The translations under genes were made by a program, and so were the position numbers. The notes under the pieces were generated by a model, which did no database searches, was not told the origin of the DNA, and was given only the letters and a program-made list of their open reading frames with translations. A stretch of DNA of 64,000 bases from the NCBI RefSeq assembly GCF_964213995.1, contig NW_027590147.1, forward strand, positions 1 through 64,000. Reading direction: 5' to 3'. The stretch comes from Mustelus asterias. Lineage: Eukaryota. Of the stretch, positions 23 through 64,000 are shown one piece after another (position 1 is the stretch's first letter; each line of letters opens with the position of its first letter).

Positions 23-133
23 CTCAAAATAGCCACACCCTGGCCGTCATCATGACATTGAAGACAATGCTCTTGAAAAACAAAATTCTTAGTCCCATCA
101 CCGTCAAAGACAAAAAGTTCACCCTCAGTCGAT
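23..133 (-). CDS. TRDC: TCR delta constant region, transmembrane/cytoplasmic exon
   Basis: Acceptor TTTTGGCAG|AT; encodes (D)RLRVNFLSLTVMGLRILFFKSIVFNVMMTARVWLF* with the TCR alpha/delta TM basic residues R and K (LRILFFK). Stop TGA at 26-24 is followed one base later by a GTAAG donor, so the 3'UTR exon lies outside the window. Confidence 0.95.
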
Positions 134-2725: not shown

Positions 2726-2788
2726 CGTTTTCCGTGTCACTTGATTCTGTCAAGGAATCACTTCGACCTGTAGGGCATTTAGGTTTAT
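2726..2788 (-). CDS. TRDC: TCR delta constant region, connecting-peptide (hinge) exon
   Basis: 63-nt phase 1/1 exon: TTTTGCCCTTCCAG|AT AAA CCT AAA TGC...GAA AAC G|GTATGT; encodes (D)KPKCPTGRSDSLTESSDTEN with the expected interchain Cys. Confidence 0.88.
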
Positions 2789-5528: not shown

Positions 5529-5840
5529 CAATTTCAGCTGTGGGCGGGATGTTTACTGAGTAATTTCGATTATCGTGAAATGCCTTGCACGTGATGTTTG
5601 GCGATTTCTCGGATTGGCGGAAAGAGAGAAAACCCGAGCTCCTGTAATTCCCGCTCTCCAATAGGACACTGGGTCTTGTCACATTGGCCTCCTGGCCCGA
5701 TCCCGTGTACAGGGAGAGCATGATTGCGTTGGGCGAGAAGTCCGAGGCCAAGCAAACTGCAGCTGTGTCGATGCCGGTGGCTCCCCGTGGCACTGGCGGG
5801 TAAAAGACGCTCAATGTAGGCTCCACCGGGCCTTTCGCCT
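5529..5840 (-). CDS. TRDC: TCR delta constant Ig domain exon
   Basis: 312-nt phase 1/1 exon: TTTTCAG|AG GCG AAA...GAA ATT G|GTAAGT; encodes (K)AKGPVEPTLSVFYPP...AAVCLASDFSP...YRSSGFL...NITCKAFH, a C1-set domain with both canonical Cys. It joins in phase to the J donors. Confidence 0.95.
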
Positions 5841-14229: not shown

Positions 14230-14317
14230 TGGGTTCTACAGTGAGTTTGGTTCCACTGCCAAAGGTAAGCTTTCTGGTTGCATAGTTTGCACAGTGATTC
14301 CAGATGGTACAAAATCG
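14230..14317 (-). CDS. TRDJ: Jdelta segment (NYATRKLTFGSGTKLTVEP) with 12-RSS; intact
   Basis: Coding 14230-14289; FGXG; donor GTAAGT; RSS CACAGTG-12-ACAAAATCG at 14290-14317. Confidence 0.95.
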
Positions 14318-15085
14318 ACATAACCCACATGAATAGCAATGTAAGGATTGTTTGTCATGCTAAGGTTTTTGAGATTCGATTTGCTTCCACAGCTGGTTCA
14401 TTATTACGGCCAGAAATAAATGCAAAACAATATCCAAGGAAAGATGTTCTGGCTAAAGAGGGAGTGCACCGAAGGTTCACCGGACAGATACTGGAGTGGC
14501 AGGACTGACATATGAGGAGAGATTGAGTCGGTTAGGATTTTATTGTCTGGGGTTCAGAAGAAGGGAGGCAGGAGGAGAAGATCTCATTAAAACCCATAAT
14601 GCAGGATTAGAAACGATAAATGCAGGATGGCGGCAGGGTCCAGAACCGGGGTTCATAGTCAAAGAATATGGGACTGATATGAGGAGAATTTATTTTTCAA
14701 CAAGAAAATGAAAAGCCTGTGTAATTCACAATTACAAAGGTTTAAACAGAACAATTGTGCTTATTCGTCTCCCCTCTATCTTTTTGATCAACTCTCTGGG
14801 TGGAATCTTTCTATCCCGTTCACAGTACACAAATCTGCTTCTCAGTTCAATACCATATTACCGATTACCAATACCATATTATCCCAACTCCTATCCCATG
14901 TACCTCTAATGACTGGGTAGGCAGGACTAGATCAAAACTGACTCAAAATTGTGCAATCTCTTCGCCTGCATGCCACATATTATATTGGCACTCTGCCCAA
15001 CTTGACTAGACTACTTACAACAGAAAACTAGATCACAGAGGAGACGTGGAGTGAAAGGATAAACACACACTGACTTCACACTCAC

Positions 15086-15163
15086 TTGGTACAACTGTCA
15101 CCTGGGTGCCGCTGCCGAACGTTAGCTTATCGTAGCACAGTAACAATTTCTCAGACAGAAACC
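15086..15163 (-). CDS. TRDJ: Jdelta segment (YDKLTFGSGTQVTVVP) with 12-RSS; intact
   Basis: Coding 15086-15135; donor GTGAGT; RSS CACAGTA-12-ACAGAAACC. Confidence 0.95.
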
Positions 15164-15708
15164 TTCTATTGAGTTAGCTGTTTCAGATTTCAGACTATTC
15201 ACGGCAAAGACAAAACTGGAACAGTCACTGATTCGCTGCAGGTAACAGATATTGCATATCTTCCCCCTCCCCGCCATCACAGGCTAAATGGGCCGAATAG
15301 CCTCCTTGGATGCTCTAAGATTCTATCAACGTGAAGAATTTCTGAGCCAAGGTAGCCACTGGTCAAATATAGCCATCCATGTCCTCCCCCTGCAGCAAAT
15401 ATATTTTGCCTCTGAATCTTCGTTAGGTAACATAGGAACAAGGGAAGGCTATTCAGCCCTTTGTGCATTCTCTGCCAATCTCTGAAATGGCATAACAGAA
15501 ATTTGCAACATGGCCTTGCCAGTGGCGCCTCAACCCCTGGCAGAAAAGAAATGCAATTCAACGAATGGTATTTAATTTGTTAGCTAAGCTTTCTCTCCTT
15601 ACAGATGCTGCCTGACCTGTTGTGATTTGTCCCAGCATTATCTGTACGTATTGTCATTTCCAAGAGGTAAACAGAAATGTTGAGTCTGAAAGATGTGTTT
15701 CTGTTTCA

Positions 15709-16119
15709 CTGTATCAACAGTTACTCGGGCTCAGTTTCCAAAAGTGAGATATTTTTTATTCCTTCGTGGGACATGGGCACCGTTGGCTGGCCAGAATTTA
15801 TTATCCATTCCCAATTGCCCTTGAGTGTCAACCAAATTGCACATGTAGGCCAGATCAGATAAGAATGGCAGATTTCATTCTCTAAAGGACATTACTCAAC
15901 CAGATGGGTTTTTCCAACACTGGTTTTCATCGTCAACAGTAGAATTTTAATTCCAGATTATTGAATTCAAATTCCACCATCTGCTGTGGTGGGATTTGAA
16001 CACAGCGTCCCCAGAACACGAGTTGATTTCCTGGATTAATAATCTAGCGATAACACCACTAGGCCATCGCCTCCCCCCAGTTTCACCACCTCACAATATT
16101 GCAAGGTCACCCAGTGAAA
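15709..16119 (-). pseudogene. TRDJ: Jdelta pseudogene split by a SINE
   Basis: Joining 16091-16077 to 15752-15709 restores GGETGYLTFGN*ARVTVDT; heptamer CACAATA at 16092-16098; nonamer and donor are degenerate. Confidence 0.7.
15753..16076 (-). mobile_element. tRNA-derived SINE inside the J pseudogene
   Basis: Minus-strand GGCGATGGCCTAGTGG head and GTTCAAATCCCACCAC B-box; related copies at about 5200-5500 and 39380-39690. Confidence 0.75.
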
Positions 16120-16269
16120 CTAATATGCCAGGTGGTTGGGACCCTATGTAAGGAGTCAGGGAAAGAGGGAACAAGGACAAAAACAAGAGGTAGAAAAGGG
16201 AATAAGAAAAATGAAAGCAGAGAAACCAAGGAAAAAATTCAAAAAGGGCCATAGAGAAAAATGCTGGGA

Positions 16270-19125
16270 GCGAGACAATCAATGTTAAAAAGACAAGCTT
16301 AAAGGCTCTGTGCCTTAATGCACGGAGCATTTGCAATAAAGTGGACGAACTAATCTTGGAGATAGATGTAAATGGGCATGCTATAATTGGAATTACGGAG
16401 ACATGGCTGCAGGGTACCCAGGGATGGGAACTGAATGTCCCAGGGTATTCAGTATTTAGGAAGCACACGCATAATGGAAAAGGTGTTGGAGTGGCACTGC
16501 TGGTTAAAAAGGAAATTAACACACTGGTGAGAAACGATATTAGCTCTGATAATGTGAAGTCTATACGGGTAGGGTTGAGAGATACCAAGGGGCAGAAAAC
16601 ATCAGTGGGTGTCATATATAGACCCCAAAACTGCAGTGGTGATATTGGAAATGGCATTAAACACGAAATTAGAGATACATTTGATGAGGGAATATCGGTG
16701 ATCAAGGGTGATTGTAATCTGCACATTCATTGCGCAAATCAAATTAGCCACAATGCCGTAGAGGAGACATTCCTGGAGTGGATACGGGATGGTTTCCTTA
16801 ACCAATATGTGAAGGAACCAACAAGGGAGCAGGCCATCTTAGACTGTGTAATGTAGTGAAAACGTAAGAATTGCCAATCTAGCTGTGTGAGACCCCTTAG
16901 GGATGAGTGAACATAACATGAGAGACTTTTTATCAAGTTGGAGAGTGAAGTATTTGACTCGGAGACTACTGTGTTGAATCTTAATAAAGGAGACTATGAA
17001 GATATGAGGCGTCATTTGGCCTTCATAGATTGGGGAGACTTACTTAAACGGATGACAATGGATAGGCAACGGCAAACATTCAAGGAACGCATGGGGGAAC
17101 TGCAGCAACAGTTTATTCCAATCTGGCACAAAATCAATATGGGAAGAGGGCCAAACCATGGCTTACAAAGGAAATTAAAGATAGTATCCGATTCAAAGAA
17201 GAAACATACAGATTGGCCAAGAACAGTAATAAGTCTAAGGATTGGGAGCAGTTTAGAATTCAGCAAAGTATGAAGGGATTAATTAACAAGGGGAAAATGC
17301 AGTCCGAACGTAAGCTTGCAGGGAACATAAAGACTGATACTACGAGTTTCTAAATGTAGAACCCCTACAGACAGAGCCGGGGGAATGTATAATAGGGGAC
17401 AAAGAAATGGCTGACCAGCTGAATACATACTTTTGTTCTATCTTCACAAATGAGGACACAAATCAGATACCAGAAATGTTGGAAAATGCAAGATTAAGTG
17501 AGAGGGAAGAACTGAGGGAGATCAACATTAATAGAGAAATGCTACTGGGAAAATTGATGGGATTGAATGTGGATAACTCCCCAGGGCCTGATAATCTTCA
17601 TCCCAGAGTACTAAGGAAGTGGCTGTCGAAATAGTGGATGCATTGGTGGTCATCTTGCACGATTCTATAGACTCTGGAGCAGTCCCTGCAGATTGGACGG
17701 TACCTAATGTCCAATATTGAAAAAGGGAGGTAGAGTGAAAATAGGGAATTACAGACCAATAAGCCTAACATCGGTAGTGGGGAAAATTCTCTAATCCATT
17801 ATCAAGTAGTTGCAGTGGAGTATTTTGAAAGCAGTGGCAGGATCAGATAGAGTCCGCATGGATTTATGAAGGGGAAATCATGCTTGACAAGTCTGTTGGA
17901 GTTCTTTGAAGATGTAACGAGTAGGATTGACAAGGCAGAGCCAGTCGATGTGGTATATTTGGACTTTCAAAATCGTTTGACAAAGTCCCGCATAAGAGAT
18001 TATCGTGGAAGATTGAAGTGCATGGGATTGAGGGAAGTGTATTGAGATGGACAGAAAACTCATTGCCAGAGAGGAAACAAAGAGTAGGAATTAACAGGTC
18101 ATTTTCAAATTGGCAGGCAGTAATTCGTGGAGTGCCACAGGGATCGGTCCTGGGATACCAGCTATTCACAATATATATTCATGATTTGGACGAGGGAGCA
18201 AATGTAACATCTCAAAGTTTGCAGATGATACCAAGTTGGGTGGGAGGCTGAACTGTGACGAGGATGCAGAGATCCTTCAGCCTGATCTGGACATGTTGCA
18301 TGAGTGGGCAAATCAATGGCAGATGCAGTACAATTTGGATAAATGTGAGGTTAGTCACTTTGGAAGCAAAAACAAGAAGGCAGATGGCTACCTAAATGGC
18401 TGTAAATTGCGAGAGGAGAGTATACATGGGGACCTGGGTGTCCTTGTTCAACAGTCGCTGAAGGTAAGCATGCAGGTGCAGCAGGTAGTTAAGAAGGACA
18501 ATGGTATGTTGGCCTTCATTGCGAGAGGTTTTGAGTACAGGAGCAGGGATGTATTGTTGCAATTATACAGGGACTTGGTAACACCACACCTAGAATATTG
18601 TGTGCAGTTTTGGTCTCCTTTTCTGAGGAAGCAGGGAGTGCAGCGAAGCTTTCCCAGGCTGATTCCGGAAACGGGCGGGGCCGATGTATGAGGAGAGATT
18701 GACGAGGTTAGAATTGTTTTCGCTGCAGTTCAGACGAATGAGGGGGGATCTCATAGAGACTTACAAAACTCTAACGGGACTAGACAGTTAGATGCAGGGA
18801 GGATGTCCCCGGTGGTCGGAGCCCAGAACCAGGGGTCAGAGTCTGAGGATTCGGGATAGACCATTTAGGACGGTGGTGAGGAGACATTTCTTCACCCAAA
18901 GCGTGATAAGCCTGTGGAATTCATTACCACAGGAAGTAGTAGATGCCAAAACATTGAATGTATTCAAAAGGTGGCAGGATATAGCACTTGGGGTGAAAGG
19001 TTTTGGGGAGAAAGCAGGATTGGGCTACTGAGTTGGACGATCAGCCATGATCGTAATGAATGGCGGAGCAGGCTCGAAGGGACGAATGGCCTCTTCCTGC
19101 TACGATCTTCCATGTTTCTATGTTT
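16270..19125 (+). mobile_element. Decayed CR1 ORF2 (APE endonuclease + RT)
   Basis: CLNARSI, GITETW, VIYRP, GVPQGSVLG motifs across many stops and frameshifts; 3' tail near 19120. Confidence 0.9.
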
Positions 19126-19383
19126 CGATAAGGCACCCATCAATGCGTGTCACATTGCTGAGGCCCAAAGATTGGCTTGTCACCTGCAGCATGTCTAAAT
19201 AAGCATTGAGAGCTGAGCTAGGTAGCTCCCTATCTTCTTGAAGCTCATCTCACAGACAAAATGCCTTCACTTGCATCCCATGCAATACTTTGCTTCGTTG
19301 CCTACTTGCTATTGGTCAGACACCACATTGCGAAAAAATAATCTACATGAAACAGAATGAAAGTAACTTCCAATCGTACTCAC

Positions 19384-19472
19384 TTGGCACAACAGTCAAC
19401 TGGGTGCCGCTGCCAAATGTGAGCTTCACGGTATCGTCATAATGCATAGTGCAAAGGGCACAGACGTAAACC
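19384..19472 (-). CDS. TRDJ: Jdelta segment (HYDDTVKLTFGSGTQLTVVP); open frame, non-canonical heptamer
   Basis: Coding 19384-19444; donor GTGAGT; RSS CATAGTG-12-ACGTAAACC, where CAC>CAT is expected to impair RAG cleavage. Confidence 0.9.
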
Positions 19473-19594
19473 TTCCAATGGAAGTGAAGATGCAGATATC
19501 ATTTAATACATGATGAAGCATACCCACTAATTCCGGGGCAGGGCAATATACAAAGTTCATATTCGGAAGAGCCCTTGAGACCCTTGAAGGAAAC

Positions 19595-19682
19595 TTCAGC
19601 TACTTTAATTCTAACCAGATCCAAACTGAAGATTTTAAATGTCTTATTCGGTTGCATAGTGAATGTGTTGCTCTGCGAAAGA
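19595..19682 (-). pseudogene. TRDJ: Decayed J relic (..NLQFGSG/RIKVAE)
   Basis: TTTGGATCTGGT (FGSG) then a frameshift to AGA ATT AAA GTA GCT GAA; heptamer CATAGTG at 19655-19661, 12 spacer, weak nonamer. Confidence 0.6.
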
Positions 19683-20031
19683 TAAGTTTTAAAGTTCTGG
19701 TGCTAGCACATCAGTACACAATGTGACAAAAAATTAAACCGAACAAGGTGAGCCGAAATATAAGATTTATTTGTATTTTATTTCTCCTGCGTTTGAGTTT
19801 TGAGTTCAATTGCAGATTCTGCTGACTTCAACAGCCAGGGCAGGTTATATCTTGAAAGGAAAATATTTCCCCACATCCAGCAATTTAAATGCAATTCCTT
19901 CTTCTCGTCTGTTAGCTCCACATGACATATATTTCTATCCACTTACAAATGGGAATTTCATTCTCAGTAAATATTGTTCAGATTTTCTGCGTCCACAGTG
20001 CTTCACCATTACATTTTGCGAGGGTGCTTAT

Positions 20032-20119
20032 TGGGTTCCACAGTAATTTTGGTTCCAGTGCCAAGGATCAGCCTTTCATCGGTGGGGGTGACACTGTCGA
20101 TGTAGATGCTAAACATATC
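20032..20119 (-). pseudogene. TRDJ: Jdelta pseudogene (TPTDERLILGTGTKITVEP)
   Basis: LGTG instead of FGXG; donor reads ATAAG; RSS CACTGTC-12-AAACATATC is degenerate. Confidence 0.85.
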
Positions 20120-20127
20120 GGTTACTC

Positions 20128-20305
20128 TGGGGTGAACACAGAAAGAGTTATAACAACACCAGGTTAAAGTCCAACAGGTTTATTTGGTAGCAAACACCAT
20201 TAGCTTTCGGAGCGCTGCTCCTTCGTCAGATGGAGTGGACTTTAACCTGGTGTTGTTCAAACTCTTTCTGTGTTCACCCCAGTCCAACGCCAGCATCTCC
20301 ACATC
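20128..20305. mobile_element. Short palindromic Penelope-derived repeat with hammerhead-like core
   Basis: ~46-bp inverted arms (TGGGGTGAACACAGAAAGAGTT...GGTTAAAGTCCA and its reverse complement); minus-strand CTGACGA-AGGAGCAGCGCTCC-GAAA at 20229-20201; sibling copy at 62632-62768. Confidence 0.7.
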
Positions 20306-20860
20306 GGGAACAGTAACGCCAGAGTCTTTATTGTCTTGCTTGCTGTTTTGACCATAGATTCGGATTCAAGTTGCAAGAGAAAAATGCAACTGTGCCCCGA
20401 AACCACCCCTCATCTAACTCCAATTATATTTGATTTTCTCTATTTCACAAAAGCACAACACATAGCTAGAGGTTTAACGTTCCTTCCATGCAGGGTTTCA
20501 TTAACTTCTCTGTACTCTCTTGCCATGTTAGTCCCCCCTAAATGCGTCATCCCACACTTTTCAGAGTTAAAATTTCCACAGCTCTGCCCATTTGACCAAT
20601 CCCTCTGTATCGTACTGCAATTGAAGGATTTTCTCCTCGCTATTTACCACACCACCACTTGTTGTGTCATCTATGAATTTACTGGTTATATCCCCTGGAT
20701 CGCTATCTCTCTACTTAACTTCTAATGATACATTGATCCATCTAACAACTTATTATTAAATTGAATTAATCAATTATTTTCGCTCTTTGTCACCATTTGT
20801 TGGACACGGGTTCAGCAGAAAAGTCCATCGAAGGATGCAGAGAAATCAGCTGGCACTTAC

Positions 20861-20953
20861 TTGGCACAACAATCAATTGGATTCCGCTGCCAAAGGTGAG
20901 TTTCTAACTACCGTCATAGTAATAAGCGCCGTGACACATTGCCAGCAGAAAGC
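20861..20953 (-). pseudogene. TRDJ: Jdelta pseudogene (YYYDGS*KLTFGSGIQLIVVP)
   Basis: Good donor GTAAGT and FGSG, but in-frame TAG and a degenerate RSS CGCCGTG-11-GCAGAAAGC. Confidence 0.85.
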
Positions 20954-21297
20954 TATCAATGCATAAGGTCATTCAGTTTCTGGCTATTACACATAGCAAG
21001 GAAACTGGAATATTGACTAATGGGTGGGATGCCTTGAAAGCTGCTATGGTGTACGAAGAGTTCATCTTAACATTGATTTACCACCAACAGAGGAACAATG
21101 AATCTTATACGATTGTATAACACTAAGGACATCTAACCCCAAATTCCCTAACTGCGTCCAGTGGTGCACTAAGGCACAATTAATCTGCTTCCAGAGCTAG
21201 CTATTTCTGGAACAGGTCGTTATACTGTTGCCAGGGGCTTAGAGATTTAGGAAGCCACGATCCATAACAAACGTGGCTGAGCAGGAATCTCACTCAC

Positions 21298-21347
21298 TCT
21301 TACCACCAGTGTTATAAACTCAGCTTCCTTGGCCATCAAGTACATTG
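21298..21347 (-). pseudogene. Possible J relic with GXG deleted (RKLSF/ITLVVR)
   Basis: AGG AAG CTG AGT TT ATA ACA CTG GTG GTA AGA|GTGAGT; heptamer-like TACATTG at 21341-21347; the rest of the RSS is replaced by a SINE fragment. Confidence 0.45.
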
Positions 21348-21571
21348 ATTAGAACTCGAACCCGGCATTTCTGGCTCAGAGGCAGAGACTTTAACACACT
21401 ACGCCACAGCACGTCCCCAACTTATTAATGGCCTTTATATTACCTCTCCTTCCCCAAAAGTCGATACGGATTGAAACAAAAGACGATATCGTGATTTATA
21501 TATTCGAACTGTAACTTTCAATTATCCCACTACTGTAAATAGATCATGATGGAAAATAGTTGAGGACTTAT

Positions 21572-21659
21572 TGGGCTCCACAGTGAATTTTGTCCCTTTG
21601 CCAAAGACAAGCTTCTCAGTTTGGTAGATAACACAGTGGTAACGGCTACCACAAAACAT
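21572..21659 (-). pseudogene. TRDJ: Jdelta (IYQTEKLVFGKGTKFTVEP) with good RSS but no GT donor
   Basis: Open frame with FGKG; RSS CACAGTG-12-ACAAAACAT; donor position reads ATAAGT. Confidence 0.9.
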
Positions 21660-22644
21660 AGAACCAGCCACATGAACACAGGGCTAGCTTACATTCAGTT
21701 TGAGTTAATGTTACTCGTCTTGTTAGCTTCTCTCCCGAACCAAATATAACAGTTTCCTCTCCCTCAATCTTAGTTACTACGTTTTTCACAATTTTAAAAG
21801 GCACGTTATTGGATCAATAAATCGACTGACTTCACATTTTCCATCTCCGCTGATATCTCTCCCTGAGCAGAAGGAGGCCATTCGGCTCACCATTCAATGA
21901 GATCATGGCTGATCTGATGTCATAATCCTCAACTCCATTTTCCCACCGCATCCCCAGAACCCTCAATTTCCTTGCAGATTAAAAATCTGTCTATCCCAGG
22001 ACTGATCATACTTAACGACAGCCCTCTGTGGTAAAGAAGTCCACAGATTAGGAACCATCCGAAAAAAGAAATACTTCATCAACCCCTTACTCTGGGATTG
22101 TGCCTCTGGTCCTCGACTCTCCCACCAGGGAATAAAATAGAAGTCGACAGCACATCAAAGGCCCTGCGTCCCATCGTGTCTGTCTCGCCAAAGATAAACC
22201 AGCTGACTTTTCTAATCCCATTTTCCAGCACTTGGCCCGTTTGCCGTTTGTGAAATGGCATTACAAGTGCATATCCAAATACTCCTTAAATATTGTGAGG
22301 GTCTCTGTCAACACCAGCCTTTCAGGCACTGAGTCCCAAGCTGCTATCACCCTTTGGGGGGAAAGTTCTCTTCACATTCCCTCTAACTCTCCTACTCTGC
22401 ACTTTTACTCAATGCACCGCCCCCAAAAAGCACTGCTCATTGATTCCTCCGTTATGGGGATAGGTGTCTTCCTGTCTACTCTATCTCTGCTCCTCATTAG
22501 GCTGAAGCAACTTTTACAGTACAGTCTATCTCTCTGACTCTATGACCCTATCGGGCTGTTCCTCTTCTAACTATGTATCAATGTATCATTTAATTGCATT
22601 GCACACAATCATTTCAGCAATACATCTCCTTGACAGGTGGATTT

Positions 22645-22865
22645 TCATAGAATCATAGAAACCCGACAGTGCAGAAAGAGGCCATTTGGCCCATCGAGTC
22701 TGCACCGACCACAATCCCACCCAGGCCCTATCCCCATATCCCTACATATTTGCCCACTAATCACTCCAACCTACACATCTCAGGACACTGAGGGGCAATT
22801 TTAGCATGGCCAATCAACCTAACCTGCACATCTTTGGACTGTGGGAGGAAACCGGAGCACCCGAA
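22645..22865 (-). mobile_element. 5'-truncated HE1/V-SINE-like element
   Basis: Matches the 3' half of the copies at 60245-60582 and 61855-62195. Confidence 0.8.
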
Positions 22866-23103
22866 CGATGAAGGACAGTTAAATGTTTTAAGGAAACAAT
22901 CTTGAATTGTGGAAACAATAAAGCTGTCATCTGCTCCATCTCAATGCCAAGTGAAGCTGCTTTTTAGATTCCCAATTAGAGCTGCTCACCCGTTCCATAC
23001 AACAACAGTGATAATTGAAATAACACAGCGACTGTATGTCTCAATGAAGCCATGGGGGAAAAATAACATGTTGAGTAATCATAATCCAGGATTAGTTACT
23101 TAC

Positions 23104-23194
23104 TGGGTTCCACAATCAGCCTGGTTCCATTGCCGAAGATGAGCTTTATAGTCTCTCCATATGTTACACATCCTTTGACTCCATAACAAGATCC
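23104..23194 (-). CDS. TRDJ: D-proximal Jdelta segment (TYGETIKLIFGNGTRLIVEP); intact
   Basis: Coding 23104-23166; FGNG; donor GTAAGT; RSS CACATCC-12-ACAAGATCC. Confidence 0.93.
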
Positions 23195-23376: not shown

Positions 23377-23458
23377 GGTTATTGTACGGGCGTTACGGGA
23401 GATTCAACTACTGTGGTCCCACGATATCCCCACAGTGATACGTGCCAGCACAAAAACT
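23377..23458 (-). CDS. TRDD: Ddelta segment GGGATATCGTGGGAC (23430-23416) with 5' 12-RSS and 3' 23-RSS
   Basis: V-facing CACAGTG-12-ACAAAAACT (23431-23458); J-facing CACAGTA-23-ACAATAACC (23415-23377); G-rich and open in all three frames (GISWD/GYRG/DIVG). Confidence 0.96.
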
Positions 23459-39729: not shown

Positions 39730-40244
39730 GGTTTTTGTACAAGTCTGGATGTGATCTATATCAGTGTGCTGCTGTGCACAGTAATACGTCGCGCTGTCTG
39801 CTATTGTTAACGTGCTGACAGAGAGATCGAATACGTTGTTGGAAAGGTCCTTGGATGCAATGAATCGTCCACCAAGCTGCTGATTGTAATCCTTTCTATT
39901 TTAATTATTGTACGAAAGCAGCCATCCCAGTCCCGTCTCAGGACTGTGCCGGTACCAGAGCATGGTGTAGCTCCCAAGATCAAATCCGCTGGTTTTACAG
40001 GTTAGGGTCAGGGATTGCCCTACTACCCCCGTTTCTGCCTCTGGCTGGGTCAACACCACATCCGACTGGACGCCTGCTAAAGGGAAGAAACAATAATTAT
40101 GGTGAGGTGAATCCAGTTTGTGTCATTCCACAGGGAATGATTGATGTCAAACAGAAACTGTGCAAATTTTCTGATAATATCCAACTACTCACAAGATAAG
40201 ATGACAAGGAACACACAGAGAAATATCGCTAGCATCATGCTCAT
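39730..40244 (-). pseudogene. IgH-like V gene (TAILV/VH-type) with leader and 23-RSS; single stop in CDR2
   Basis: Leader 40244-40193 (MSMMLAIFLCVFLVILS), 119-nt GT-AG intron, V exon 40073-39769: [100 protein letters not shown]; RSS CACACTG-23-ACAAAAACC. Confidence 0.93.
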
Positions 40245-40592: not shown

Positions 40593-40881
40593 CACTGTGT
40601 TAGCTGTGCACTGACATAAGCAGGGTGTCCTCCATCGTCACCCTCCTGACATCGAAAGCAAATATATTGTGTGTAAGGTCATTGGAAGCAGTGACTCTTC
40701 CTTCAGACTCCTCACTGTTGGATATTTAGCTGGTCCTGCCTCTTCCCGGTACTCTTCTGGTTCTAATATGGCCACTGGCCACTGAAGTCGAAGCAACTGG
40801 TTTTGGAGGCTAGGGGCAGGAACTACCCTGGGAGCCCCATCTCTGCCTCTGACTGCGTCAGCGATACTTCCAACTTGACAT
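40593..40881 (-). pseudogene. Second, heavily decayed IgH-like V
   Basis: Acceptor TTTAACAG|AT; VKLEVSLTQSEAEMGLPG*FLPLASKTSCFDFSG..., then after a frameshift GRVTASNDLTHNIFAFDVRRVTMEDT; heptamer CACAGTG at 40599-40593; nonamer lost. Confidence 0.8.
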
Positions 40882-43707
40882 CTGTTAAAGTTAGAGAGAC
40901 ATCAGTCATGGTGAAGGGCGACACGGTAGCACATTGGTTGACACCGCTGCCGCATTACACGACAGAACAGGTTTCGATTCCAGCCTTGGCTGACTATATG
41001 GAGTTTGCACGGTCTCCCCGTGTGTGTGTAAGTTTCCTCTCGGTGCTCCGGTTCCCTCCCATAGTCCAAACATGTCTGAAGTTTTGGTGGATTGGCCATG
41101 CTCAATTACTCCTTAGTGTCCCAAGACGTTTAGATTGTTTGATTGGCGAAGTTAGGGGAAAGGGCGGGTTGTGGATCTGGGTGCAGACTTCTGCACTGTA
41201 GGGATTCTATGATGACTCCTGCCGGTTTGACACCACTGAGTTGAGGCACAGTGGAAAACACAAACACACACACACATACGAGGCATTGGGAGAATTGTCA
41301 AGCCACTCTGCATATGGAATCCTCCAATAGACTGATTAACATTGTTGGCCATGGCCAAGAAAAGGAGGAGAAATGGAATGGATTTCATGCATGTTGTAAA
41401 GTTTGCATAAAAGGGCAGGAATCACCATCGAATATCGCAGACTGAAAAGATCCTTTACTCACCAATCTGTGTCACAGATGTGTGTGTGTGTTGAAGACAC
41501 GATCATTGGTTCTATGCACTTGTGGGTTATTAATAATCGTTTCAGAGGGAATACAACATCCCTGCATCTGGCTGTCCAGCTCTTTTAGACTTTTATACGT
41601 TTCCGTGAGATGCCCTTTCATTCATCTAAATTTCAGTGAACATAGGCCCAGTAGACTCAATCACTTCCTCATATGACAATCGTTCTCTCCCAGGAACCAG
41701 TCTGGTCAACCATTGCTGCAATCCCTCTATGGTATGTATATCCTTTATTAGATAAGGAGACCAAACTGCATGCAATACTCCAGGTATGGTTTCTCCAAGG
41801 CCCGATACAGCTGTATGAATACATCCTTGCAATGAAGGCCAACATAGCATATGCCTTTCTAACTACTTGCTGACGCTGCATTCTTGCTTTCAGTAACTGG
41901 TGTGGGAGGACACCAATGACCCTTTGCAACAACAATAGTATTCTTGCAAGAACAATACCAGAACTTGCAATAAATAACAATCTTTAGAACCATTAATAAT
42001 GGTGCCTTCTCTATTAGCAGCAAGTGCCAAGACTTGAATCATTTCAATGTTACAAATGTTCATTTATGCAGCAAATTTGATTCCTGTCTCTAGCACCTCG
42101 AGATTCGCCGCTTACCCTCAGCAATAGTGGCACTCAGTCGGATCACGCCAGCAATATGCTAAGGGACTAAGTGCAACAGTCTTCGTGAAAACAAAATGAC
42201 TCTTGTCCTTGTGCTGAGGACCTCACACACATTGGTTCCAGTTGTACTGTGTGCAGAGGCCGAGATGGCCGATGGACTGACACAACGTTCATTAATCCAA
42301 TCCTACCCAAGCCTGGTAAATAACCTGTTTGTGTTACAATCCACATTGAAAAAAGAGTCACTGAGGTGCCTCATATCCACCTGTGCGGAACGATCAGCAG
42401 CTGTGCTTAGCTTGGATTTAAATTTATCCACAGCAGCAGCGGGGAGCGGCATCAATTACAATGTCAATGGTCATGATGATTGTGACAAATAATTGACAGA
42501 ACTCACTGCGCCGCGCACACAGACACATACTAACACACACAGGCACACACACACACACACACAGAATCCTGTTTTCAATCCATGGGCATTGTACTGGGGA
42601 AAGTCAAGGCGACGCAAATCCTTGGCCGACATTGCCACTGGCCGCTGTCCACTGGATACGAAAGGCGACATTCCAATCTGCAGGCAAGAACTGTGGTTGA
42701 GGATCACCAAACACCCAGCTATTCTAGTCGAATTTCCCAGCACTTGTTCCGTAGACTTGCATGCTACGGCGTGTCGAGTGTTCACCTGAATGCTTCTTAA
42801 ATGTTGTGAGGGGTCGCCGTCTCATCAGGCAGTCAGTACCAGATTCCCACCACCCATTGGATGAAAGTGCTTTGACCCCAAATCCCCACTAAATCTGCTG
42901 CCCCCTACCTTAAATTTATGTCACCTCGTTATTGACTTCCGAACTAAGGGGAAATGTCCCTTTCTAGTCACAATATCGATATCCCTCGTAATTCTGTACA
43001 CCTCAATCAGGTCCCTCCCACATCTCTGCTTTAAGGAAAACAACCCCAGCCTAACCAGCCTCCCTTCATAGCTGAAACGATCTCGCCCAGGAAACATCCT
43101 GGTGAGTCTCCTCTGCACCCTCTCTAGTGTAATCACATCCTTCGTAGTCTCTCTTCATGTCTAAAAGTCTGCGTGTATCCATCTGTTGTTCAGAGCTGAT
43201 CACACTGTGCCTTCCTGCTTATTTGTATGTTCATCACCTGTAAGTTAGTTTCAAGTAAGCTAGTCACCATGTATCCATTTTGCCTGCTCGTCCAGCAGTT
43301 GATGTGGCTCCAAACTATCTAACGTCTTCGTGTCCATGTGTATGTTTTGTATGTTAGTCTAGCTCTGTCTATGAATCTATCCATTTAACTATCGAGTGAC
43401 CATTTATTTGTTTTCTGTTAATTCATCCGTTCGTGTGTCTATACATCTATCTAACTGTCCGGTGACCATATTTCTGCCTTGTGTGTTAATGCATCAGTTC
43501 CTGTGTCTATCAATCTATCTTGCTAGCTGTCCAGTGACCATATATCTGTTTTATGTGTTACTGAATCAGCTGATGTGTCTAAGAATCTAATTCACATCTG
43601 TTTGCCTGTCCATCTCTGTGTTGATGCTGCAATTCTACAACACCGACATTGGACAATGGGACTACACATCATGCCGAGACCTTCCATTGCCTGGGAGAGG
43701 AACCTGC

Positions 43708-44066
43708 AGTTTATGCAGAGACTGCTGCCCGGAATATGCCAGTGTGTGTGTTTAAGACGCAGAAGTATTTCCTGGAGTCCTCAGCTGTCACGGGTGCAAC
43801 TGTCAGACTGATGCTTCTGTAAGTTTTGCTCAGGGAGGAGGAAAAGCGACGCCTGGAAAATGTGGCGCTGTCGCTGAAACCGTCGGTGCAGCGGACGAGA
43901 ATATACTCGGGACTCCCTCCCATGGCTGGGTGGAGAGGTTCCCGGTACCAGACCAAGCAAGCCCTCTCCACCTCTGTGTAGGAGCAGGTGATTGTCGTGG
44001 TGGCTCCCTGCTGGACCATCACTTCTGCCTCTGGCTGGTGTATGACTGCGGATGCAGCCAGGCTAC
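43708..44066 (-). CDS. TCR V exon (alpha/delta type, atypical) with 23-RSS; open frame
   Basis: Acceptor CCCCTTCAG|GT; exon 44066-43747: SLAASAVIHQPEAEVMVQQGATTTITCSYTEVERACLVWYREPLHPAMGGSPEYILVRCTDGFSDSATFSRRRFSSSLSKTYRSISLTVAPVTAEDSRKYFCVLNT; RSS CACACTG-23-GCATAAACT. Confidence 0.92.
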
Positions 44067-60582: not shown

Positions 60583-60798
60583 ATGTTAAAGTCCATGTAG
60601 ACAACATCCACTGCATTGTCCTCATCTACCATCTTGGTTACTCCTTCAAAAAATTCAATCAATTTCGTGAGATATGATTTTCCACTCACAAAGCCATGGT
60701 AACTGTCCCTTATTAGTCCGTGCTCTCTAAATGCCTGTAGATCCTGTCTCTCAGAATACCTTCTAACAATTTACTCACTGCAGACCTCACCATTTTAA

Positions 60799-60959
60799 GG
60801 TTTTTGTACAGCTCTCTCTGTGTTCTGTATCACTATGTCTGTGATTTTCACCATGTTCATTTTTTTGTACAGCTCTTTCTGTGTTCTGTATCACTGTGTC
60901 TGTAATACGCACCATGTCCAGGTTTTTGTACAGCTCTCTCCATGTTCTGTATCACTGTG
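60799..60959 (-). promoter_or_regulatory. Three tandem 23-RSS copies, 61-bp period, 3' of the supporting V
   Basis: CACAGTG-23-ACAAAAACC (60959-60921), CACAGTG-23-ACAAAAAAA (60898-60860), CATAGTG-23-ACAAAAACC (60837-60799); spacers near-identical. Confidence 0.93.
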
Positions 60960-61265
60960 CTGTGCTCCGACTCAGTGCACAGTAATACACAGCGGAATCG
61001 CTCAGTTCCAGTTTGGAGATCTTTAACCAGCTGATTTTCTCGGCAGAATCGATAGAAGCAGAAATTCTCCCCCCGGCAGCATTTTCTTTATTCTCCTCTC
61101 CTGAAGTGTGTGTCTGAAGCAGGTATTTCAGAGCCTGCCCTGCGGACTGACTGTACCAGTGTACTGTGTACTGACAGAACCCTGAATATTCACAGCTTAA
61201 AGCAACCGTGTCACCAGCAGCAGAGGTTTGGAGAGGCGGATTTTTCGACACCAGGGAACTAGAAT
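60960..61265 (-). CDS. TRDV: NARTCR-supporting Vdelta exon (leaderless, CDR1 Cys)
   Basis: Acceptor TTTTATCCTCCAG|AT; (D)SSSLVSKNPPLQTSAAGDTVALSCEYSGFCQYTVHWYSQ...SDSAVYYCALSRST; in phase with the upstream NARTCR J donor; no leader exon seen in the intervening 1.66 kb. Confidence 0.93.
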
Positions 61266-61854
61266 CTGGAGGATAAAAAAAGAAACAGCGTTTTCTTCTG
61301 TGTTTCAGTCATTGTTTACCAGGGGAATGTGTCAATTGCGGGAGTAGCTCAGTTTTATTCGGTGTTATTATCACTTTAAATCTGATGGAACTGTATTCAC
61401 TGTTATTATTATTGTAAACCAGTGGAAAATGAGGTTTTCTTTACACAACAAGATCCAACGGTCTGGAATGCAATGTCAGAATGATGGTGGGAGCTGAATC
61501 AACAGTGACAAACACACGGGAATAGTCAAGCGCCGGAACAGGAATAAAACAGGGTTATGGGGAAAATTCATGACTGAGGGGAAGAACTGGATTTCACTTA
61601 TAAAGGGCTGCATCTACTCGAGGGTCACCCTTTCGCTCTCCAGGATTCAATGATGTATGTTACATTTCACTTTCTATTTCCCTTCCTAAGAGACAGACAC
61701 GAGGGAACATTTTATTATCAGTGAGGCAATCCGTTCCAAGTGACTAACCCAGCTGCGCTACGTCGAAGCGCACAGCAAGATCCAACAGGGAATGACTGTG
61801 ATTCATCAGCTCCAATGGGGATGGAATGATGTTGAACATCGGTGCTCAAATGTC

Positions 61855-62195
61855 ATAGAAATCATAGAAACCCTACAGTGCAGAAGGAGGCCATTCGGCC
61901 CATCGAGTCTGCACCGACCACAATCCCACCCAGGCCCTACCCCCACATATTTTACCCACTAATCCCTCTAATCTACACATCCCAGGACTCTAAGGGGCAA
62001 TTTTTTAACCTGGCCAATCAACCTAACCCGCACATCTTTGGACTGTGGGAGGAAACCGGAGCACCCGGAGGAAACCCACACAGACACGAGGAGAATGTGC
62101 AAACTCCACACAGACAGTGACCCGAGCCGGGAATCGAACCCGGGACCCTGGAGCTGTGAAGCAGCAGTGCTAACCACTGTGCTACCGTGCCGCCC
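61855..62195 (-). mobile_element. HE1/V-SINE-like element, full length
   Basis: Close sibling of 60245-60582. Confidence 0.85.
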
Positions 62196-62631
62196 TTTCC
62201 TTTATATCTGTTTAACACTTCCCGGGAATCTCTGTTTATTCATCTATTTGGTTTTCTTCTGCTATCTAACTATCAGGAACATCTTTTCTCCTTTTCTCTT
62301 TACTTGGAAATATTTACAGTCAGTTTTATTTTGTTTCAACATTTATTTTGCGCTGTTTGGGTTCGTTGCAATCGTGGAAAGTTCTCCCAAAGTCTCTCAG
62401 TTGTCAGTTGGGTTTATTCTGTTCAGTTCCTGCAGTGGTTTTACAGTTACTCACTGGGAACTGCCTCTTCTGGCTCTCTGACAATTTCAATTCTTTTTTT
62501 GCTCTTTAACTGATTCTCTTCTGCTCTCTCTGGGCGGAATTTTCTCTAAGTTTTACATTGTATAGAAACTGCAGAAGAGGAACAGGCAATTCGGCCTAAC
62601 TCACTGATGTCTGCCTAGATACACCCGTCAT

Positions 62632-62768
62632 GATGTGGAGATGCCGGCGTTGGACTGGGGTAAACACAGTAAGAAGTTTAACAACACCAGGTTAAAGTCC
62701 AACAGGTTTATTTGGTAGCAAAAGCCACACAAGCTTTCGGAGCTGCAAGCCCCTTCTTCAGATGAGTG
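62632..62768. mobile_element. Penelope-derived short repeat with hammerhead-like core
   Basis: Homologous to 20128-20305; minus-strand CTGAAGA-AGGGGCTTGCAGCTCC-GAAAGCTT at 62761-62731. Confidence 0.7.
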
Positions 62769-62930
62769 ACTCCCAAATCACGTCCTGCCCCCAAATCAAA
62801 ATCTGTAACGGATCTGTAAACAGATCCTTATCCGTATCAATTGGACTGAAACGATACAGATCACGATAATAAAATGACGGTGAGCGTTACACGATACATT
62901 TTGTAACACGGCGGGGTTGGAGTAACTTAC

Positions 62931-63021
62931 CGGCTGTGACAGTCACCACCGTCCCTGATCCATCGGCTTCATACCAGGTCGTACACACTGATACCGATCT
63001 CAGACTCCCCGTACAAGAACT
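62931..63021 (-). CDS. NARTCR J segment (TTWYEADGSGTVVTVTA) with 22-spacer RSS
   Basis: Coding 62983-62931; IgNAR-like DGXG motif; donor G|GTAAGT; RSS CACACTG-22-ACAAGAACT. Confidence 0.92.
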
Positions 63022-63331
63022 ACCGACTGCTCAACTTGACGGGAAATCATCACAGTCATTTGGAAGTTCCCATTATTCGGGGGATTTAAATCAATAAATA
63101 TTATTCAATGTTTTGAAGTCTCTGTCAGTTCAAACTGTTCTTTTTGAGGCCCCGCGTTCTCAGTAAATATCTCCAGGTAGGAGATAGTCGCTTCATATTA
63201 ACTGAGAAAAATATCAAAGAAAGATGTGAGTCACGGAAAGTGCAATGTAATTAATCCAGATTGCAGCGCTAATAACATCAACCCATAATTCTCTCTCTGG
63301 GCCCTGCGAATGTATAAGGTAATTGTGCACA

Positions 63332-63403
63332 GGTATTTGCTCAGCTCCTTTTCACTGTGACTGTCCCAACCACTACACAGTGTTATAATTCAGCATCAAA
63401 ACC
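63332..63403 (-). CDS. NARTCR D segment TAGTGGTTGGGACAGT (63375-63360), 12/12 RSS
   Basis: V-facing CACAGTG-12-ATCAAAACC (63376-63403); J-facing CACAGTG-12-GCAAATACC (63359-63332). Confidence 0.9.
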
Positions 63404-63728
63404 CCATATACTGTGTGAGATGTAGGGACATTAATTAAACAGCGGGGACTGCGGTTCCCAGTTCCAGCTGAGAGACGATGATCCCATCTTTTGTTTGGGT
63501 TTGTAACTGGGATCAGTCATTTCCATTCTTCATTCATCACCGCTGATCCCGGAAAGATATCAGCTTCCGCACACACTTCATGTTTATAACACTCAGAATG
63601 TTAACGGTAATAATCAAATCCTCATTATAAACTTGACTGTGGGATTGACGGTGTGCGATGGAACTGTGCGGGTGTCAGAGAAGATTAACTCCGCTTTTTC
63701 ATTTGTTTATGTGAAAATCTTCAGTGAG

Positions 63729-64000
63729 AGTTTTAGTATGGCGGGAAGCCGAGACACATCACTGTGCCGTCTCCTTTGTAATGAGCTTTACAGTAATAGG
63801 TGGCGGCGTCTTCAACTCTCACATCCCGAATTTCCAACGAAAATGTCTTTTCTGCTTTATTCACCGACTCAACAAATCTCCCTCCGCCGGAGATCCGCTC
63901 CCGCTCTGTCCCAGCCTGTGTTTGCCTGAAGAATTCCGCCCTCTCCAAAGCACGAGCGTAGAATCCACCATAGAAAACACAGGTGATGGTGAGGGACTGA
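63729..64000 (-). CDS. NARTCR V exon (IgNAR-like V, 5' part outside window) with 22-spacer RSS
   Basis: QSLTITCVFYGGFYARALERAEFFRQTQAGTERERISGGGRFVESVNKAEKTFSLEIRDVRVEDAATYYCKAHYKGD; short inter-Cys span with CDR2 deleted and ISGGGRFVESVN/YYCKA VNAR signatures; RSS CACAGTG-22-ACTAAAACT. Confidence 0.93.

Follow-up and report, generated by a model that had tools for sequence, protein, structure and literature searches.

An intact NAR-TCR cassette probably heads one of several TCR-delta miniclusters in Mustelus asterias

What kind of locus does a complete NAR-TCR cassette belong to when it stands close to C-delta in the genome of the shark Mustelus asterias? The question is raised by one end of the window, by which we mean the whole 64,000-nucleotide stretch of DNA that was analysed (G000:C115:1-64000), in which all parts of the cassette and of its unit lie on the minus strand (Table 1). 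The best explanation, in which we have good confidence, is that an intact NAR-TCR cassette heads a self-contained TCR-delta minicluster, with 19 C-delta copies in the assembly that likely represent at least 8-10 loci. Segmental duplication probably spread these loci, and RAG likely remodelled them in the germline. Besides the cassette, the minicluster comprises two more V, a single D, six J and a private C-delta.

The initial annotation described the cassette as V(22)-(12)D(12)-(22)J, and our RSS scan recovered each of these signals in its place on the minus strand. The region 60900-64000 contains five RSS, against a maximum of two in any of 500 dinucleotide-block shuffles (none in 484, one in 14, two in 2). 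The NAR D is 16 bp long. The NAR J is followed by a splice donor, GTAAGT, at 62930, and the supporting V is preceded by a polypyrimidine-AG acceptor at 61266. Both sites have phase 1, and joining them gives a frame (...GSGTVVTVTA-D-SSSLVS...YYCALSRST) free of stops, which bears out the proposed in-phase splice to a leaderless V-delta as a prediction; the same junction appears, at the sequence level, in the predicted database gene model of this locus, P0002. No leader exon for the supporting V was found in the 1,665-bp J-V intron by a scan that recovered both of two control leaders, nor in any of the eight paralogous J-V introns that could be parsed (nine further introns were unparsed). Beyond position 64000, the adjoining DNA supplies the leader and FR1 in a single open frame with no lesion, so that the leader, the NAR V and the J-V splice frame are all without a stop, as had been described for the visible parts. 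The 23-RSS of the supporting V at 60959 is a perfect match, and the D-delta at 23416, with a 12-RSS on its 5′ side and a 23-RSS on its 3′ side, is the partner that had been suggested. The distance of ~37 kb given for Ddelta-Jdelta-Cdelta holds for D-delta (37.5 kb) and fails for C-delta, whose first exon is 55 kb away. Behind the supporting V, the window carries three tandem 61-bp units (60786-60964), each with one 23-RSS, and the RSS scan found two to five such units in unjoined paralogs.

Compared with PDB, the N-terminal V finds VNAR first: the best 20 of 576 matches are labelled VNAR/new antigen receptor, with a best E of 2e-20. The supporting V returns generic antibody matches only. The NAR V possesses the a-b loop cysteine (RKECQSL) and lacks the tryptophan of WYRK, reading EFFRQ instead, while the supporting V has a cysteine in CDR1 (CEYSGFCQY). 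The available portions of PMC1845163 define NAR-TCR by an a-b loop cysteine, no WYRK tryptophan, a leaderless supporting V and a CDR1 cysteine, and the cassette carries all five sequence hallmarks given in the available publications: an IgNAR-like V, a leader, the a-b loop cysteine without the WYRK tryptophan, a leaderless supporting V and the CDR1 cysteine. Its layout adds RSS for two V(D)J events and C-delta exons downstream. Full-length relatives of the V-V pair, 55-92% identical, occur across sharks and rays among 46 matches, and near-identical paralogs labelled Mustelus asterias are present in the database. Because of these hallmarks, the VNAR matches, the open frames, the relatives and the matching gene model P0002, the cassette reads at the sequence level as an ordinary intact NAR-TCR, of known biology and predicted to be expressed; the identity and intactness assigned to it at the outset are upheld. 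As far as the available portions of PMC1845163, PMC6795676 and PMC5931798 describe them, the NAR-TCR of nurse shark and elephant shark have the same leader-bearing IgNAR-like V, with its a-b loop cysteine and no WYRK tryptophan, and the same leaderless supporting V-delta with a CDR1 cysteine, two V(D)J events and C-delta. Those descriptions place TCR genes in a translocon, whereas here most cassettes own a private D-J-C-delta.

Table 1. Features of the cassette and its unit, with positions in the window unless a contig is named
Feature	Position	Strand	Remarks
NAR-TCR V exon, 3′ part	63767..64000	-	exon start C115:64055, outside window
NAR V leader exon	C115:64246-64204	-	outside window; in frame with V exon 64055-63767
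22-spacer RSS of NAR V	63729..63766	-	heptamer at 63766; RSS scan
NAR D (63360-63375) with flanking 12-RSS on both sides	63332..63403	-	RSS scan
NAR J (62931-62983) with 22-spacer RSS (62984-63021)	62931..63021	-	RSS scan
Intron, NAR J to supporting V	61266..62930	-	without leader-like exon (leader scan)
Supporting V-delta, leaderless, CDR1 cysteine	60960..61265	-	translation
Supporting V 23-RSS, first of three tandem 61-bp RSS-bearing units	60786..60959	-	RSS scan
Atypical open V exon, 23-spacer RSS with weak nonamer	43708..44066	-	exon 44066-43747; leader candidate 45692
IgH-like V with leader and 23-RSS	39730..40244	-	in-frame stop 39901-39903
D-delta (23416-23430), 5′ 12-RSS and 3′ 23-RSS	23377..23458	-	RSS scan
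Six J-delta	14230..23170	-	G-x-G motif at 23134, 21602, 20062, 19414, 15116, 14260
C-delta Ig-domain exon	5529..5840	-	open
C-delta connecting-peptide (CP) exon	2726..2788	-	open
C-delta transmembrane (TM) exon with stop	24..133	-	ends 24 bases from contig end

The unit holds more than the cassette. The IgH-like V is 59% identical to an IgH V and 67% identical to the matching V of a basking shark gene model; among six close copies, its stop occurs in the window copy only. A broken relic of it lies just upstream (40624-40951), and three V upstream of the cassette, at C115:79-83 kb, looked broken. A reading of the unit as NAR-TCR-only was rejected, given the open atypical V inside it and the further V inside and upstream. 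The CP-TM intron of C-delta encloses a reverse transcriptase reading frame (676-2736), which we take to be LINE-like; this intron is long in C115, C123, C106 and C173 and short in the other 15 C-delta copies.

Searches by DNA, TM exon and protein all returned the same 19 C-delta genes in the assembly, with C, CP and TM exons open in every one. Over 5.4 kb, pairwise distances range from 0.04 to 9.3% and no two copies are identical. Three copies, 1.9-3.1% apart, share a single 20.4 Mb contig (C71), and the remaining 16 lie on separate contigs of 34 kb to 2.6 Mb. As controls, C-alpha has two copies, and RAG2, the one control from another chromosome, has one. The closest pairs, C850/C71 and C123/C106 (0.04-0.09%), may each be alleles or a single locus. 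Since two haplotypes can provide up to two copies per locus, 19 copies require at least 10 loci; merging all copies less than 1% apart leaves 8. We therefore consider it likely that at least 8-10 real loci stand behind them.

A co-oriented NAR-TCR cassette lies 16-58 kb upstream of C-delta, over intervals read in part, in 15 of the 19 copies: C115, C123, C106, C71 at 7.1 and 12.2 Mb, C110, C111, C90, C181, C850, C173, C154, C436, C96 and C119. Closeness to C-delta, which had been singled out as special, is consequently the spacing usual in a unit that occurs many times over. Where no cassette stands upstream, C138 has an IgH V, the contig ends first (C3311), or a broken V is joined to D-delta (C71:11.0 Mb and C401). 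On C138 (217.7-218.5 kb; L082:4700-5470), the IgH V is ~430 bp above a D, which at its 5′ end looks like a fusion with another D, and J-delta and C-delta follow. The basking shark gene model shows the same order of NAR-TCR cassette, V, D, J and C-delta. Further, two different C-delta models on one contig of Heptranchias may mean that Mustelus asterias is not alone in having the duplication. The homolog searches missed several annotated sharks and give no measure of copy number in other species.

The unit in the window is, by its sequence, a locus of its own, because its middle (15-39 kb) is mostly 80-95% alike or unmatched in the five other units with which it was partly compared. It is also a mosaic: the 3′ part is 98-99.9% like C123/C106 and the 40-56 kb part 97-99.9% like C110. 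This would fit unequal recombination among units, and mis-joining fits too.

Cassettes also occur in the assembly as orphans, with no C-delta. At C115:1.038-1.042 Mb and C71:11.087 Mb (L016-L018), far from C-delta, there are head-to-head pairs of supporting V and cassettes with no separate D. The C-alpha genes, on C546 and at C71:18.37-18.43 Mb, are 88% alike around the TM exon, and one strict pattern found 138 and 34 J-like motifs ahead of them, respectively. Relics resembling D-delta, with a shortened 3′ RSS, lie at C546:113.6 and 120.8 kb.

Several units carry joints of the RAG type. At C110:85 kb, in a twin of the window cassette, V and D are joined, D being trimmed and one base added, and 28 kb further on stands an exact signal joint between the 12-RSS of D-delta and the 22-RSS of a NAR V, followed by a hybrid joint. 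The stretch at C110:113.7-114.5 kb (L039:6660-7520) contains, in this order, the signal joint, D, and an RSS of J that is fused with the coding end of an inverted NAR V. The cassette at C71:14.35 Mb, a second twin, has no V-D join, and the signal joint in which it ends involves another V: at C71:14376803 (L090:3803), the same D-delta RSS is joined to the 23-RSS of a TCR alpha/delta V, and this V is unjoined on C471, C87 and C107. The signal joints at C110:113696 and C71:14376803 are both exact and head-to-head. The signal joint at C71:14.38 Mb and a V-D coding joint at C71:11.02 Mb were considered as reciprocal products and rejected, since their V partners differ. One identical junction of supporting V to D-delta is common to C436, C96 and C119, whose C-delta regions are 1.0-3.7% apart, and predates these copies. 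C850 and C401 have supporting V-D-delta joins with other junctions, C90 and C173 have NAR D-J joins, and on C122 (L085:7147-7205) a supporting V is joined to a NAR D by inversion. The C850 join (L081:8239-8291) sits in a cassette resembling that of C154, with a C-delta 0.04% from that at C71:12.27 Mb, and is possibly an inter-cluster join.

Two junctions recur in public reads, compared over 62880-64000. Run X4 (sample S3) contains the exact C110 V-D junction (joint 63368-63766) at a depth of 3.5, and run X1 (sample S1) the C173 D-J junction at a depth of 14.2; these are contig depths, giving no share of cells. Each was listed in one of three same-organism runs, all from one study that is maybe the source of the assembly, with tissues unstated. 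The search of public runs listed no RNA run containing the cassette, which speaks neither for nor against expression. The junction common to three diverged paralogs and the recurrence of two junctions in public reads make joining in the germline likely.

Alternatively, the clusters could be real and the joined copies somatic rearrangements of lymphocytes captured in the assembly. Most junctions occur on one contig each, those of C90, C122 and C138 have G/C-rich non-templated additions, the near-twins C110 and C71:14.35 Mb (99.2% alike over 28.7 kb) differ both in whether they are joined and in the partner of their signal joint, and the C110 joint was found in a single run. We nevertheless regard somatic capture as unlikely, as it must contend with the junction shared by three diverged paralogs, the depth of the C173 junction, the presence of the C110 junction in a run from a different sample than X1, and fully joined NAR V-D-J exons in gene models of great white and horn shark. 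In the models P0012 (horn shark) and P0013 (great white), two tandem fully joined NAR V-D-J domains precede the supporting V.

Another possibility is that the units exist but that most are silent debris of duplication, the window cassette staying open through the youth of its copy. The stop in the window's IgH-like V, the frameshifts in 5 of 14 copies of that V, and the orphan cassettes all point this way. Yet all 19 C-delta are open, even at 9% divergence, and NAR V frames are open in the cassettes that were read, with differing CDR1 loops; we judge debris to be quite improbable. A single TCR alpha/delta translocon with a C-proximal cassette, the other C-delta being uncollapsed haplotypes or assembly duplicates, would suit the fragmented region, the two near-identical C-delta pairs and published elasmobranch maps (a translocon, catshark and stingray each having a single TCR-delta constant entry), but is highly improbable when haplotypes allow at most two copies per locus against 19 distinct ones, up to 9.3% apart and three on one contig, when RAG2 is single and C-alpha double, when gene content upstream differs between copies, and when, in place of one C-delta directly upstream of a J-alpha array, none was found in the 87 kb of gap-free sequence upstream of the first J-alpha on C71 and none seen above J-alpha on C546, where a 200-N gap interrupts the sequence.

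The joints also bear on the claim that two recombination grammars meet in this cassette, which was overstated. In 18 scanned cassettes, the J RSS has a 22 spacer in nine, a 23 spacer in seven, and D-J already joined in two. D-delta 12 has joined NAR-V 22 at C110, and supporting V has joined NAR D at C122. Spacers of 22 and 23 are both two-turn and interchange, and the cross-joins show that signals of the cassette and of the delta locus obey one 12/23 rule.

Under our preferred reading of duplicated miniclusters, repeated segmental duplication of the block of NAR-TCR cassette, V, D, J and C-delta likely gave rise to the clusters. During T-cell development, RAG would join NAR V-D-J in two 12/23 steps inside 0.8 kb, and would join the supporting V to D-delta and J-delta with deletion of ~37 kb. 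The spliced product would be a delta chain with three domains, ordered leader - NAR V - supporting V - C-delta, and its unpaired tip may bind antigen like VNAR, as in the published NAR-TCR model. Occasional RAG activity in the germline would have fixed partial joins and orphaned some cassettes. We infer expression, the true number of loci, the germline origin of single-copy joins and the preference for joining within a cluster; expression, pairing with TCR-gamma and antigen binding would follow, by analogy, the model in the available portions of PMC3457774 and PMC6795676.

Among known systems, TCR-mu of marsupials and monotremes also has a three-domain delta-derived chain and repeated V-D-J-V'-(J)-C clusters, a pattern of repeated V-D-J-V'-C found here in 15 of 19 units. 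Germline joining of the supporting V, described for marsupials in the available portions of PMC7615758 and PMC3457774, is a further likeness. TCR-mu differs in its VH-like V, in a Vmu-j that is intronless and fully joined, and in its unlinked locus. The N-terminal V of the shark units is IgNAR-like, their supporting V is joined to D at most, D-delta is present, and the units have six J and extra V and lie on the contig also carrying C-alpha. The likeness is convergence, not membership. Shark Ig miniclusters are likewise built of repeated V-D-J-C units with partial joins in the germline; their junctions are trimmed and of P type, and a germline hybrid joint is on record (PMC2193153, PMC5192425 and PMC6795676, in their available portions), with germline RAG described in PMC2193153. 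They are immunoglobulin, whereas the units here are TCR and carry signal joints in the chromosome at D-delta. In newts, galliform birds and flounder, extra or separated TRD loci, as covered in the available portions of PMC12698447, similarly place TRD away from TRA, with two TRD clusters and one pre-joined V. They comprise one or two extra loci with no NAR domain, against about ten here.

The elasmobranch AgRC likewise has many NAR-TCR V-V cassettes scattered over megabases, in the available portions of PMC12227049, which describe TCR alpha/delta as a translocon in four elasmobranchs. Its Table S1 has a single TCR-delta constant entry for catshark and another for stingray, lists no C-delta multiplication for its four species, and labels one great white NAR-TCR entry germline-joined; our best great white match (75%, P0013) has the same NCBI description as that entry. 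Mustelus is absent from its main text. In available portions, PMC7615758 describes TCR-mu clusters and names marsupial TCR-mu as the sole TCR whose V is joined in the germline; PMC12698447 reports a further case from a newt and calls receptor locus duplications uncommon; and PMC5931798, PMC5192425 and PMC13433984 contain nothing further on locus number. A literature search, with primary NAR-TCR and shark TCR-delta papers outside its scope, found no report of multiplied shark C-delta. The cassette itself is a known gene type, and the multiplied delta clusters with their RAG-type scars are probably the new part.

Shark TCR genes have been described as translocons and shark Ig genes as clusters. 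Clustered NAR-TCR delta would mean that one type of locus can become the other within one shark lineage. The direction is opposite to the usual story of clusters becoming translocons, and mirrors the independent origin of TCR-mu. A bolder proposition, to which we give even weight for and against, is that the TCR-delta translocon of this shark has become at least ten Ig-style NAR-TCR miniclusters that are expressed and no longer attached to C-alpha. On this view RAG would still act on them in the germline, with the coding, signal and hybrid joints as its recent traces, in part between clusters, and the shark would show an ongoing parallel to mammalian TCR-mu. Such clusters would make several questions testable, namely allelic exclusion across many delta loci, whether alpha-beta T cells retain delta genes that lie away from the alpha locus, whether joining is confined to one cluster, and the present-day activity of RAG on TCR genes in shark germ cells.
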